NCBI GenBank assembly: GCA_038046605.1 | Contig: JBBSVW010000068.1 | Span: 1 to 25,224, forward strand | Direction of reading: 5' to 3' | DNA from: Candidatus Micrarchaeota archaeon | Lineage (GTDB): Archaea > Micrarchaeota > Micrarchaeia > Norongarragalinales > SBBD01 | DNA length: 25,224 nucleotides | In this document: piece after piece, positions 2,784-6,616 of the stretch | How the letters are laid out: each line of letters begins with the position of its first letter | Position numbering within the stretch: position 1 is the stretch's first letter | Translations under genes and position numbers: made by a program | The notes under the pieces: model-generated | What the model was told of the DNA's origin: nothing | Seen by the model: the letters and a program-made list of their open reading frames with translations, nothing else | Database searches by the model: none

Positions 2784-5645
2784 GTGCGGCATTCGAAAAA
2801 ATTTTTTTCTCTATTTATACCCTTAACGGTATTTTTACTGTTTTCCTCTACCGGCAGCTACCTGCAGACTGAAGAAACCCTTTCCGCGCAGCTAAAGGCT
2901 TCAGCCGTCCTATCCCCCATCGCTGCTGATGAAGGAGAGTTTTTACAAGTCACAATTACCTGCGATTATATTCCACCTCAGCCCTCAAAACCGATTTGCC
3001 TATGGGCGGATTCTTTGCCCCCCGGCGCCGCATTTCCGACGGTGAGCGGAACGGGTTCTGTCAGTTCAGACTTTTCGTGGATGCCAAATTATTGCCAAGC
3101 GGGAGCTTATCACGTCGAGTTCCTGTGCGGAGAGAGCTGCGGCGCAACCCTCACAACGCTTCTTGTTGACTTCGAGATAAATAATATCAACCGTTTGCCC
3201 TCGTTAGTTGTCGCACCCTCGGGACCCCTTTCCGTGCAGGCGGGTACGTCGGTGCATATGGATTTAACTGCTACCGATCCCGACACATCCCTATGCTCCG
3301 ACCCTTTCAACAAGGACAATTTAACTTTAAGGGGAATTGACCTTCCAAATGGGAGTTTAATCATCAACTATGGCAATGAAACCGGCGAGTTCAGTTGGGC
3401 CACAACGCCATTCGACTTGGGCGTGCACTTTCCGACGCTGATTGTTGACGATGGGAAAAACGGCAGCGATAATCAGACAGTTGAGATAAACGTCATGAGA
3501 CCCAATCCCGTGCTTCTCGTGCATGGCATCTACGATAGTGATGCTATGTGGGAAGCGATCAAAACCGATCTGGAGGCGAAAGGCTTCCAAGTCTTCCTTG
3601 TCGGGAACGTTACGGGAAAGGCCGGGCTTGAACCGAACAATGGGGACATACGAGAATTGAGCGTACAACTGCAAGAAGCGATAAGCGAGGTGAAGCGGAG
3701 GACCGGAGCGGACAAGGTCGACGTAATTGCGCACAGCATGGGCGGCCTCGTCACCTCCTGGTACATCAAGAGCGGCAATTTTGCGAATGACATCGGAACC
3801 TTCGTGACCCTTTCCACTCCCTTCTATGGAACGCCCATTTCAAAATATCTTCCAGCGCCTCTCCTCGGGGCGATAAGTGGAACGGATCCCGCGGACACCG
3901 CGAGGCACCAAATGAACGAAATCGGTTTTTCCGAATTCCTTCGCGAACTTGATCCCGATAGCCTTTCCGAGGTTTTTAACCAGAAAGGAGTTACGCATAT
4001 CGCCGTAATCGGAACGGACAACGAATTCTTGAAAGGGGCGGGGGTATTTTTAGCTGGCGGCTTCATCGATGACATCGGAAAAATCATATCTCTTCAGGAA
4101 CCCTGGGCGACTTCCGACAGCGACAGTGTCGTCCCCACAAATTCCCAGTCCGTGCCGGGTTCATTGTGTTTCAAAGTGCATGCCACCCACAGCAAGCGCT
4201 TCGGCAATCCGATTGCCGAGCATCCGGATATCATTTCATCAAACCTATCGCTCCTTTTAACTCAAGGCACATCCAACCTGGAAATATGCCAAGACTTCGA
4301 GCCGAGGAGGCCGCCAGGCGCCATCAGAATGGTGGTTCAGGCACCGTTTATTGCAGGCCAGATATTGGTCGGAGAAACCCTTAATGGGGGTTATAAGGTC
4401 GGAAGATTTATTTTTACGAGGCCGGGATGGTTTTGGCGTACAATCACCTCCCACAGCGGCAGCACCCTCAGCACCCGGCTCATTGCTCCTTCCGGCGCCA
4501 TTTTCAATTCAACCACCAACCAAACCAACCCGAACGTGACCTACGTTAAAGGGCCTAATTTTGAGGTTTTTGGAATCAAGGGGGCAGAACTTGGGCAATG
4601 GCAGGCCAACATCACCGCTATTGACGTCCCGCCGCAGGGAGAGAATTTCACTTTCATTCCCTTTATCCTGACCGACGTAAACCTCTCCATCCTGAACAAT
4701 AGGACCGAATTCTTCCTCGGCGATACGGTCCTGCGGGTTGTGGAAATTTCCAATGGAAGCGGAAGCTTCCCCGGAGCCAACGTCACGGAAGAAATCCGGT
4801 TATCGACCGGGGGCACTGAAGCCTTTTCCCTTTACGACGATGGTCTCCACGATGATTTCGGTCCAACCGACGGGATTTACGGAGGCTATTTCAGGAACGT
4901 CTCAAGCGAGGGAAACTATGCCGAAACAATAACTGCGAGCATCGGCACCGAAGCCGGGCCCCTCAATTTCACCGCTGGGGGCAGTGGCTTTTTCGCGAAG
5001 GGGCTCTGCGGCGACTTGAACAAGGATGGCGTGCGCAATGTATTGGATGTTGTAGGCGTGGTCAACATAGCCTTCAGGGGAGGTTCGCTTCCTGATCCTA
5101 CTTGGATCGCGGACATCAATGGCGACGGGATAAAAAGCGATGTGCTGGATGTTGTGGGGTTGATTAATCACGCCTTCAGGGGCGGGCCAGTGCCTACATG
5201 CACAGGCGGCACCGTTGCGACTTCCTCGAATACGGCGACGGTGAGTTTGGGAACGGCCACGAAGAATTCGGATGGGACTTTTACGATTCCGGTCAATTTA
5301 AATAATCCAGTGAATGCGCAAGCGGCGGGGGTGGAAATTTACTACGATGCCGCTAAATTGCAAATGCTATCGCCCGCCTTAACATCAAGAACTTTAAATT
5401 TGGATAAATATTACTCAACTAAAAATAATGCGTTAAAGGTAGGGATTTTGAAAAGCGATGGAAGCGCATACATCAACGCAGGGAATGGCCCGGTAATTAA
5501 TGTCCTTGTGAAGCCACTTACTGCTGCAATTGATTTCAGCAGTTTGAAAGTGCAGAACGCCAAATTTGTCGAGGCGAATGGTGCGCAGATGGTTGCAAAA
5601 ATCACCGCTTCAACCCCAAAAACGGCTGGAACGACTCTAAACTGA
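2784..5645 (+). CDS. Secreted multidomain alpha/beta-hydrolase (lipase/esterase) with Ig-like repeats, choice-of-anchor-X-like segment, dockerin and cohesin-like domain
   Basis: Signal-peptide-like N-terminus; two Ig/cadherin-like units; oxyanion motif PVLLVHGI; nucleophile AHSMGG; candidate Asp (SDSVVP) and His (ATHS); 'LYDDGLHDD...DGIYGG'; duplicated Ca-loop 'GDLNKDGVRNVLDVV' / 'ADINGDGIKSDVLDVV'; C-terminal beta-rich 'FTIPVNLNN...VEIYYDAAKL'. Confidence 0.75.
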   Translation: MRHSKKFFSLFIPLTVFLLFSSTGSYLQTEETLSAQLKASAVLSPIAADEGEFLQVTITCDYIPPQPSKPICLWADSLPPGAAFPTVSGTGSVSSDFSWMPNYCQAGAYHVEFLCGESCGATLTTLLVDFEINNINRLPSLVVAPSGPLSVQAGTSVHMDLTATDPDTSLCSDPFNKDNLTLRGIDLPNGSLIINYGNETGEFSWATTPFDLGVHFPTLIVDDGKNGSDNQTVEINVMRPNPVLLVHGIYDSDAMWEAIKTDLEAKGFQVFLVGNVTGKAGLEPNNGDIRELSVQLQEAISEVKRRTGADKVDVIAHSMGGLVTSWYIKSGNFANDIGTFVTLSTPFYGTPISKYLPAPLLGAISGTDPADTARHQMNEIGFSEFLRELDPDSLSEVFNQKGVTHIAVIGTDNEFLKGAGVFLAGGFIDDIGKIISLQEPWATSDSDSVVPTNSQSVPGSLCFKVHATHSKRFGNPIAEHPDIISSNLSLLLTQGTSNLEICQDFEPRRPPGAIRMVVQAPFIAGQILVGETLNGGYKVGRFIFTRPGWFWRTITSHSGSTLSTRLIAPSGAIFNSTTNQTNPNVTYVKGPNFEVFGIKGAELGQWQANITAIDVPPQGENFTFIPFILTDVNLSILNNRTEFFLGDTVLRVVEISNGSGSFPGANVTEEIRLSTGGTEAFSLYDDGLHDDFGPTDGIYGGYFRNVSSEGNYAETITASIGTEAGPLNFTAGGSGFFAKGLCGDLNKDGVRNVLDVVGVVNIAFRGGSLPDPTWIADINGDGIKSDVLDVVGLINHAFRGGPVPTCTGGTVATSSNTATVSLGTATKNSDGTFTIPVNLNNPVNAQAAGVEIYYDAAKLQMLSPALTSRTLNLDKYYSTKNNALKVGILKSDGSAYINAGNGPVINVLVKPLTAAIDFSSLKVQNAKFVEANGAQMVAKITASTPKTAGTTLN

Positions 5646-5683: not shown

Positions 5684-5836
5684 ATATAGCGGTTAAGTAA
5701 AATAACGGAACATTCAAATAAAACCGCTATATGAGATTACGCAGGCGCTCGAAGCGCCTGCTAATGCTAAGAAGCCTCGAGGCTTCTGACGCAATAAGGC
5801 AGGGAAAAGTTCCAATAATTGCCTTATTCGCTATAT
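5684..5836. repeat. Cluster of four consecutive inverted repeats
   Basis: ATATAGCGGTT 5684-5694 / AACCGCTATAT 5722-5732; GCAGGCGCT 5741-5749 / AGCGCCTGC 5753-5761; perfect palindrome AGAAGCCTCGAGGCTTCT 5770-5787; AATAAGGCA 5793-5801 / TGCCTTATT 5820-5828. Confidence 0.85.
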
Positions 5837-5851
5837 GCTGGGGTGGCGGAA

Positions 5852-5896
5852 ACCTTTTTGGGCTGGCAGGAATATGCCAAACCGAAAAGAACGCAA
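5852..5896 (+). other. tRNA intron 1 (D-loop, about position 15/16, 45 nt)
   Basis: Hairpin CTTTTTGG/CCGAAAAG plus TGGCA/TGCCA. Relaxed bulge-helix-bulge: central GCG/CGC, bulges AAA and AAT. Exact junction ambiguous by a few nt. Confidence 0.75.
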
Positions 5897-5950
5897 TCCG
5901 GTAACGCGCTAGACTCGAGATCTAGTTGGCCGCAAGGTCAGTATGGGTTC

Positions 5951-6013
5951 AAGCCTCTTTTTCTTTTGGAAGAAAAAGACCCTTGGGAGAAAAAGAAACT
6001 CTTGGCTGCTCAA
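5951..6013 (+). other. tRNA intron 2 (T-loop, about position 56/57, 63 nt)
   Basis: Central helix GGGT(5945-5948)/GCTC(6008-6011), bulges TCA and AAA, intron helix AGCC/GGCT. Cutting after the second nt of each bulge restores a 7-nt T-loop exactly. Confidence 0.8.
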
Positions 6014-6216
6014 AAATCCCATCCCCAGCGCTTTTCATTTAGTTGCGTTTTTTTGGCGGCGGAGCCCTCGCCACCTTTTTGGTTAAAAAGGGGGCAAGGC
6101 GTGCAAATCCCATCCCCAGCGCTCCTAATTTTTCGATTATTTTTTTTGGCGGCGGGTCTGTTGCCACCTTTTTGGTTAAAAAGGGAGAACGGTGTTCAAA
6201 TACCATCTCCGGCGCC
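6014..6216 (+). repeat. Tandem ~92-bp repeat carrying copies of the tRNA 3' end
   Basis: AAATCCCATCCCCAGCGCT at 6014 and 6105, AAATACCATCTCCGGCGCC at 6198 (periods 91 and 93). Shared block TTTTTTTGGCGGCGG...GCCACCTTTTTGGTTAAAAAGGG in both units. Confidence 0.9.
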
Positions 6217-6415
6217 CTTTGCAAATAAGCTGGAAAAAATAGGTGGTTATAACGGCAATAAACAAGTCTTGGCACCTGAATAACAAAATACCTAAAAAAC
6301 CCAATATTAAGCAAAAAAATGAATGGCACATTGCACATCAGAAAAACTGCCAATGCTCACCCATGCCAAAGGAATTGGCTGATGAAATAAAAAAAAGAAG
6401 CAAGTGATCAGCGGA

Positions 6416-6439
6416 TTCAAATCCAATCCCAAACGCTTT
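6416..6439 (+). repeat. Further degenerate copy of the spliced tRNA-Ser 3' end
   Basis: TTCAAATCCAATCCCAAACGCTTT versus spliced tRNA plus flank TTCAAATCCCATCCCCAGCGCTTT: 3 mismatches in 24 nt. Confidence 0.7.
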
Positions 6440-6616
6440 ATTTTGTATACTTATTTTATTTTTCGAAAAGACGGCATATATTTCCTACTCTGATCGCGAT
6501 TTCGTGCTTATCGTAGCCAGGTTAATTTTATCGTCAATACGCGAATACCCTTAAATTTATATATTTCATACCGCATTTCAGTATAACGGGAAAGGGGCTT
6601 TAGGGGGGAAGGGGAT

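Follow-up and report, generated by a model that had tools for sequence, protein, structure and literature searches.

The arrival and departure of archaeal tRNA introns are unsettled. Tandem accretion of integrative elements is known at bacterial and archaeal tRNA genes, and bacterial REP/REPIN elements are short hairpin modules, often in inverted pairs, with tens of copies and a single RAYT (Y1) transposase. Families of tRNA introns that cross isotypes, termed 'intron transposition', were described in Thermoproteales by Fujishima et al. in 2010 (as cited in PMC3239211, PMC4390854 and bioRxiv 10.64898/2026.10.13.758758). For tRNA-Thr of Caldiarchaeum, Sugahara et al. (2012) connected tRNA fragments and intron gain with the integration of mobile elements (PMC3293823). 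A 2026 census of Asgard tRNA genes states that the route "remains open" (bioRxiv 10.64898/2026.10.13.758758).

Here, a stretch of 25,224 nucleotides from a Candidatus Micrarchaeota archaeon (hereafter the window) was analyzed, in which a tRNA-Ser(CGA) gene is followed by two short units that may be a rare physical trace of intron turnover. The locus offers the same short insert inside and just behind tRNA genes, five different states of the orthologous gene in five congeners, and junctions kept to the base. With this combination, concrete models can be tested on genomes already at hand and in one clade of culturable size; the candidates are break repair, template switching, site-specific integration, and a duplication that then degenerates. 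All genomes compared below are metagenome bins, and the relatives form a sample rather than independent observations.

The tRNA-Ser(CGA) gene and the array behind it

ARAGORN reported zero tRNA genes over the whole window, and the sole Rfam tRNA match in a window scan was partial and sub-threshold (5884-5967, 19.5 bits). The gene and its two introns (Table 1) were delimited by eye against the intron-less orthologue of another genus (G010) and the orthologues of the congeners G003 and G001, with an ambiguity of 1-2 bases at A runs. For annotation, the locus is instructive in two ways: the tRNA was missed by ARAGORN, and units with perfect tRNA 3' ends could pass for split-tRNA halves.

Table 1. 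Positions in the window of the tRNA-Ser(CGA) gene, the two downstream units and a third 3'-end copy
Feature	Position	Strand	Basis
tRNA-Ser(CGA), two non-canonical introns	5837-6030	+	limits by eye against orthologues
Exon 1	5837-5851	+	comparison with orthologues
Intron 1, D-loop, 45 bases	~5852-5896	+	comparison with orthologues
Middle exon	~5897-5952	+	comparison with orthologues
Intron 2, T-loop, 63 bases	~5953-6015	+	comparison with orthologues
3' exon (G73 = 6030)	~6016-6030	+	comparison with orthologues
Unit 1 (U1)	6031-6123	+	Tandem Repeats Finder, profile, covariance model R1, alignment A1
U1 trailer copy	6031-6047	+	
U1 T7 run	6048-6054	+	
U1 family-A module	6048-6100	+	profile E 6.6e-12; covariance model R1 6050-6100, E 8.5e-22
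U1 junction GCAAGGCG; TGCA; AAT	6094-6101; 6102-6105; 6106-6108	+	alignment A1
U1 T-stem 3' strand CCCAT	6109-6113	+	
U1 acceptor 3' strand; G73 copy	6114-6120; 6121	+	
Unit 2 (U2), older, decayed	6124-6216	+	Tandem Repeats Finder, profile, covariance model, alignment A1
U2 trailer copy	6124-6139	+	
U2 T8 run	6140-6147	+	
U2 family-A module, end decayed to GAGAACGGTG	6140-6193	+	profile E 5.9e-06; covariance model E 9.2e-15
U2 TTCA-AAT; ACCAT; CTCCGGC; G73 copy	6195-6201; 6202-6206; 6207-6213; 6214	+	
Third, strongly decayed tRNA-Ser T-loop-to-3'-end copy (TCAAATCCAATCCCAAACGC)	6417-6436	+	read by eye

Intron 1 evolves fast, with four changes in a related strain and none in the adjoining 210 bases. 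The T-loop intron of the gene represents a second intron family (CCTCTTTTTCTTT..AAGAAAAAGACCC..GGGAGAAAAAG) that was also seen at C26:14264, C105:11163-11203 and C55:12665-12710, stands at other positions in other tRNAs, and is present in several families of the order; drawing by hand gave no strict bulge-helix-bulge for it. A 152-base MITE-like element (5684-5836) with inverted ends ATATAGCG..TAAG..GGAAC abuts the first base of the tRNA-Ser gene, so that it must carry or displace the promoter. This element has a 99% copy at C9:5320-5471, and short forms lacking 5736-5792 occur at no fewer than nine loci and are abundant in metagenome contigs. Just upstream, an ORF of 953 aa (2784-5645) combines an alpha/beta-hydrolase domain of lipase-like type with a cohesin domain at the C-terminus.

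Repeats of ~92 bp behind the intron-bearing gene had been noticed in the initial annotation, and Tandem Repeats Finder resolved them into two 93-bp units within a tandem array at 6014-6215 (period 93, 2.2 copies, 79% matches). Each unit consists, in order, of ~17 trailer-like bases, a T7-T8 run, a ~53-base two-hairpin module, and a duplicate of the tRNA segment that begins in the T-loop and ends just beyond the discriminator. The units carry the tRNA's own 3' end, as had been proposed: the 19 bases at 6014-6032 recur exactly in U1 at 6105-6123 (19/19), and the U2 copy at 6198-6216 shows three differences in its first 17 positions, with a broken T-stem copy. The two hairpins envisaged for each unit were confirmed in the case of CCTTTTT-GGTT-AAAAAGG, which both units possess, and in part for TGGCG/CGCCA, which is found in U1 and is weaker (TGGC/GCCA) in U2. 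Single units fold with no exceptional stability (z -1.2 to -1.6).

The array was bridged with 0 differences by contigs of two runs (X1, 5971-6600; X2, 6007-6458), which may be the source samples; all runs listed as containing sequence from 5700-6500 are DNA runs, either labelled groundwater metagenome or unlabelled. A strain from a second study also carries both units. These bridging contigs and this strain demonstrate that the array is not an assembly artefact. The trailers behind the gene, U1 and U2 copies resemble one another, and decay rises with distance: neither the gene copy nor U1 shows any, U2 is degraded, and most degraded of all is the third copy, which has no recognizable family-A module before it. 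A related strain has at least nine changes at 6138-6193 in U2, with U1, the exons and intron 2 unchanged. The sequence 3' of U2 continues like the flank of the unit-less orthologue in G005, to which the stretch 6236-6394 between U2 and the third copy shows a 78% match.

The initial annotation had interpreted the units as miniature collinear versions of the gene that share an origin with intron 1. Its motif positions were right, with TGGCGG at 5844, 6054 and 6147, ACCTTTTTGG at 5852, 6073 and 6166, and AGAACG at 5888-5893 at the end of intron 1 and again at 6186-6191 in unit 2; the collinear interpretation did not hold. TGGCGG, taken for tRNA nucleotides 8-13, is at chance level in the window (13 seen, 16.8 expected) and is part of the module next to tRNA-Gly and other tRNAs that have no TGGCGG at the 5' end, and these counts and neighbours rule out that the units copy tRNA bases 8-13. 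The motif also lies in the D-arm of the intron-less G010 orthologue. For ACCTTTTTGG, three occurrences were seen against 0.26 expected, a number reached by 2 of 100 shuffles, and two of the three sites are tandem copies. Local alignment of intron 1 with a unit returned this one 10-mer alone, with a score that 38-64 of 2000 shuffles and 33 of 5000 random 47-mers from the genome also attained (p ~0.01-0.03), which hints weakly at a kinship of the units with intron 1. Membership of intron 1 in the family found no support: the family profile has no match in it, and the sequences at the same site in G005 and G001 look unrelated. The true relative of the units is a T-loop intron family, seen intact in the tRNA-Ser gene of G003, rather than intron 1. 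Similar units do exist elsewhere, and chance or low complexity as the source of the units is ruled out, since they match a family with tens of copies.

A family of hairpin modules inside and behind tRNA genes

In the 1.64-Mb genome, a profile made from the units and the two first matches located 21 places (E<0.01), a profile of a 52-base core located 27 at the same threshold, and the covariance model R1 gave 28 matches, the kind of scan that the initial annotation had suggested for similar units. Both U1 and U2 are in the training alignment A2 of R1, and an earlier profile from other copies also matches both. By these matches U1 and U2 are assigned to one family, here called family A. At E<=0.001 the model hit 33 of 68 genomes of the order (f1 9/10, f11 14/26, f9 5/12, f7 3/6 and f3 1/1), with 0 matches in six other families among these 68 genomes and 12-36 copies per genome in the window's genus. 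The second hairpin, CC(T/C)n ... (A/G)nGG, is paired in 90.7% of cells, and three pairs change on both sides (20 cells); its covariation score was reached by 0 of 500 shuffles and was lower in slid controls. A perfect stem of 6-12 bp is present in 35 of 37 copies, with 16 distinct stems such as CCTTCTTT/AAAGAAGG, CCTTTCTTT/AAAGAAAGG and CCTTTTT/AAAAAGG. Smaller hairpin modules (GCAGACAAAGTCTGC; GGCCCCAAAGA..TCTTTGCGG) are nested in the loops of family-A arms as repeats within repeats (C106:10422-10522, C62:3420-3560, C57:10331-10432, C79:7839-7940).

In many tRNAs, family A supplies the inverted arms of introns that lie in the T-loop (59/60) or the anticodon loop. Reverse copies stand after the T-loop 5' half or the anticodon loop, so that the introns are bounded by inverted arms GCCTTGCC... 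/ ...GGCAAGGC. Among 17 forward copies surveyed in this genome, eight precede a single tRNA 3' exon and have the 5' part of the tRNA 190-370 bases upstream, and are on these grounds true T-loop introns; the 5' acceptor was found by script for seven of them, and that at C75:7249, which starts with A, was read by eye. Five others (U1, U2, C89, C9 and C57) precede a second 3'-end copy, with the first copy 87-197 bases upstream in an intact gene. An exact upstream duplicate supports four of these five, and U2 was counted through Tandem Repeats Finder, alignment A1 and GU-tolerant pairing with the 5' acceptor. The remaining four adjoin no tRNA end. The tie between the units and tRNA introns that had been suspected is borne out. 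The module forms T-loop intron arms, including those of the G003 orthologue, and units beside other tRNAs bear the ends of those tRNAs (C89, C9, C57 and C26 here, and five places in relatives).

Both settings share inserts. The composite insert that lies behind a whole tRNA at C57 is the same as the T-loop intron at C23:55966. Another module (CTCGACAC...GGGGGG...CCCCCC...) stands directly 3' of the discriminator in several tRNAs; in the case of tRNA-Leu(TAG) a second 3' end comes after it, and at C26:14770 it is a T-loop intron. Among 27 distinct copies at 23 loci in five congeners, five are in the downstream form, one of them (L027 in G005) at a tRNA whose orthologue here has none. The left junction of the downstream form varies from +1 to ~+28 bases past the discriminator, and the right junction is fixed. 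Two further observations concern tRNA genes. A conserved trailer module, (T/C)GACAC..GGGGGG-loop-CCCCCC..GTGTC GCCTCTACCCC, starts 1-5 bases from the discriminators of many tRNAs (C4:17743, C23:53636, C26:10949, C78:17825, C82:4707, C106:10849, C9:23155, C89:36880). In several tRNAs the T-loop reads TCCGA(A/T)T, so that C takes the place of the universal U55 (C90:2390, C61:9144, C70:12226, and L043 in G024), and the intron pairing block co-varies with it as TGGA or CGGA.

The dispersal of family A in many copies with inverted pairs, including copies between genes at C79 and G036 and modules in tandem at G058, recalls a non-autonomous DNA transposon of the MITE/REP type that duplicates tens of flanking bases, the units being insertions into T-rich trailers. 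We regard this explanation as improbable. One Y1 transposase gene is present in the genome, and direct repeats of ~30 non-tRNA bases flank the modules at C93 and G051, an insert-plus-flank duplication that is not tied to splicing and fits insertion equally well. However, the right-hand repeat always starts in the T-loop at the splice-site register, which insertion into a trailer leaves unexplained, and the flank repeats have no fixed length (7 to ~40 bases). At C93:9288-9475, a family-A module with a nested insert lies between two copies of a gene start (upstream region and MKQREFN codons); seven codons show synonymous differences between these copies, so that the distal one resembles the remnant of a homologous gene and no fresh target duplication is involved.

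The Y1 gene itself (IS200-like, 148 aa, C9:24297-24650) is GC-rich, has its own flanking hairpins, and lies ~1.2 kb from a family-A unit. The ends of this single gene are unlike family A, which speaks against it as a mover of the module. TnpB was not found in the 90.7%-complete assembly, which speaks against the transposon and led us to reject a guide-RNA scheme of the IS200/IS605 type, with the module as scaffold and the tRNA end as guide. Retro-copying was likewise rejected: no PF00078 reverse transcriptase was found in the same assembly, and no CCA stands behind any 3'-exon copy.

For splicing, the organism encodes a broad-specificity epsilon2 tRNA splicing endonuclease. A 388-aa ORF has two matches to the catalytic domain PF01974 and aligns end to end (residues 14-388, E 3.5e-126) with the ARMAN-2 epsilon2 endonuclease structure 4fz2_A, a protein of 387 aa (PMC3239211). 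The genome also contains 18 LAGLIDADG_3 matches, several of them in frames of 1100-1200 aa. Free-standing LAGLIDADG_3 ORFs lie beside tRNA genes at C9:23376-23666 (L049:472-1305, minus strand) and C13:17308-17586. One of them (277 aa) has its end within the D-arm of the tRNA at C9, which also has a downstream unit and for which a search for the 5' acceptor strand found none; another lies ~70 bases 3' of a tRNA-Met.

States of the orthologous gene and origin of the units

The tRNA-Ser gene differs in state between close relatives. In G003 there is no D-loop intron, and a family-A T-loop intron, ATGGG-TTCA-AAC-CGCCTTGC ... GCAAGGCG-TGAA-AAT-CCCAT, which reads as a perfect bulge-helix-bulge, is followed by one unit. 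The gene of G001 lacks a T-loop intron; behind it come one unit and, after a different insert, another copy of the 3' end. In G002 the family-A intron has a single arm, and a unit is lacking. In G005, the closest relative (gene 93% identical over 5887-6033), both intron sites are as here and there is no unit; its downstream flank resumes at window position 6236, so that ~188 bases, equal to two units, are missing. The G010 gene has neither intron nor unit, and a search of G004 and G006 (88% and 91% complete) for the tRNA-Ser(CGA) pattern gave no match. Three congeners retain a unit in this position.

In alignment A1, the G003 junction and the units U1, U2, G001 and G003 are collinear, which identifies the units as 3' halves of a working splice junction, 1-2 substitutions off. 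The four-base block that pairs with the T-loop is TGAA in the real intron, TGCA in U1, TTAA in G001 and TTCA in U2 (1-2 changes). The units hold the 3' half of the bulge-helix-bulge only (GCAAGGCG-TGCA-AAT-CCCAT), the 5' half as in G003 being absent from the gene. They lie 3' of G73 of a complete gene and not between exons, so they are not introns by placement. Nor are they 3' halves of a split tRNA, for the gene has its own contiguous 3' exon and there is no complementary trailer.

Based on the register of the junctions, the orthologue series and the inserts shared by both settings, together with the decay gradient, the strain variation in U2, the G005-like flank after U2, and the G at position 70 of U2, which is the outgroup state, we infer that the units are probably non-functional relics of T-loop intron turnover. 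The suggestion of the initial annotation that they might be by-products of intron gain fits best when widened to turnover. On the best reading, each unit would be a fossil of an earlier 3' end of the gene, comprising the 3' intron arm of family A, the old 3' exon (T60-G73) and ~17 trailer bases. At a 59/60 intron the family-A end GCAAGGCG would pair with CGCCTTGC at the opposite intron end and the next four family-A bases with the universal T-loop bases TTCA/TTCG, so that insertion at 59/60 in almost any tRNA would yield a bulge-helix-bulge cleavable by the epsilon2 enzyme. The ancestral tRNA-Ser gene would once have carried such an intron, and one or more events would have set a fresh 3' exon and trailer directly behind the 5' exon, thereby restoring or renewing the gene and moving the former intron arm, with the 3' exon joined to it, to a downstream position. 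Such displacement would have occurred at least twice at tRNA-Ser, or once with subsequent duplication, and the distal copies, no longer used, would decay and be lost by recombination between repeats. As the cause, repair of a break or a template switch during replication at the hairpin-rich intron seems likeliest, with T-loop-like bases at the intron's 3' junction as the presumed microhomology; it is favoured because searches of the 90.7%-complete assembly for reverse transcriptase, tyrosine integrase and TnpB were negative, no CCA stands behind any copy, and the left junction is variable and the right one fixed. Of this account, the build of the units, the family, the states of the orthologues and the gradient of decay are observed, and the direction, the mechanism and the absence of function are inferred.

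Several observations count against the relic reading. The 3'-exon copy in each unit bears the acceptor base of its own lineage (T70 in G003; A70 in G000 and G001), which would need gene conversion or independent origins. U1 is unchanged in the strain with four intron 1 changes, where ~2.4 changes would be expected in U1, although this is weak evidence. The ancestral family-A state in this lineage would be taken from the congeners, as the gene's own T-loop intron belongs to the other family. In addition, the orthologue series is unrooted and leaves the order of intron and downstream unit unpolarized.

The same data could tentatively be arranged, with distinctly lower probability, as a cycle that creates and removes T-loop introns, in which the units would be caught intermediates and family A a mobile cassette spliced by the host. 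A whole tRNA with insert and second 3' exon would interconvert with 5' exons, the same insert and a single 3' exon. With two 3' ends present, the tRNA would mature either way; loss of the proximal copy would turn the insert into an intron, a gain by duplication and degeneration, and re-creation of the proximal copy would shut the intron out. The ends of the cassette would pre-encode the bulge-helix-bulge against the universal T-loop, and the free-standing LAGLIDADG endonucleases beside tRNA genes might drive it.

It was also considered that the units are attachment-site scars, left by small or cut-down integrative elements carrying family A and a tRNA 3' end that recombine site-specifically and supply a new 3' end each time, a serious rival that we nevertheless consider unlikely. 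The direct repeat 6014-6032/6105-6123 bounds an insert as at an attachment site, and the repeats at C9 and C26 span the T-loop to 1-2 bases past the discriminator, like classical ones. At C9 a strong T7 terminator stands only behind the distal copy, inserts differ within the one array of G001, unit presence and absence differ between close relatives in both directions, and an integration model is published for Caldiarchaeum, by analogy with which introns could arrive likewise (PMC3293823). Against such scars, no PF00589 tyrosine integrase was found in the 90.7%-complete assembly (0 matches, all 14 of 14 control genomes being positive), the inserts are gene-less and 72-180 bases long, one module adjoins the ends of at least six different tRNAs, the junction keeps the splice-site register, and the repeat in the window takes in ~17 trailer bases.

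That the units have a function seems very improbable, be it as additional 3' exons, spare or alternative, that the splicing endonuclease would join to the 5' exons, or as small RNAs of their own resembling tRNAs. No support emerged for the RNase Z products that the initial annotation had entertained. The 3'-exon copy of U1 is intact with a junction one base from a working one, the two acceptor changes in U2 still permit G-U pairs with the 5' strand, and the position of the unit is kept among congeners. However, each module is preceded by a T7-T8 run, an archaeal termination signal, and the tRNA-Ser gene offers no CGCCTTGC partner for the GCAAGGCG of U1. The G003 unit lacks five bases of the T-loop/T-stem region, the T-stem copy of U2 is broken, G005 and G002 do without units, and the product would be the same as the normal tRNA.

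Comparison with known systems

As probable relics of T-loop intron turnover, the units touch on several described systems. Bacterial REP/REPIN sequences resemble family A as short hairpin modules with inverted pairs and tens of copies in a genome with one Y1 gene; family A differs in that it was not seen flanking the Y1 gene and in that it forms intron ends spliced by host enzymes. Like the 3' halves of split tRNAs in Nanoarchaeum and Caldivirga, as presented in PMC4390854, the units have an intron-like leader directly before a tRNA 3' part that could pair for a bulge-helix-bulge. In contrast, the 3' end of the present gene is contiguous with the rest of it, many tRNAs have the leader in common, and no complementary trailer stands behind the 5' part.

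The Caldiarchaeum locus, as the published account presents it, likewise shows a partial tRNA copy as a direct repeat beside a working gene, intron content that varies between close genomes, and a proposed link between gain and scattering. It has a 1.8-kb recombinase-encoding insert between the gene and a 5' fragment (PMC3293823), whereas here the inserts are gene-less and of 72-180 bases, the fragments are 3' ones, arrays occur, and no integrase was found.

The intron families of Thermoproteales, in the descriptions cited above, share with family A very similar introns in different tRNA types of one genome, mostly at non-canonical sites such as 59/60, and hosts with a broad-specificity endonuclease. 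A limited full-text literature search found no description of the downstream form, that is, an insert with a second 3' exon. Unlike those families, the present one is found in a lineage related to Micrarchaeum, whose enzyme is of the epsilon2 type; it is built as a modular element with inverted arms, occurs outside genes too, and stands downstream of complete tRNAs as well, joined to a second 3' exon.
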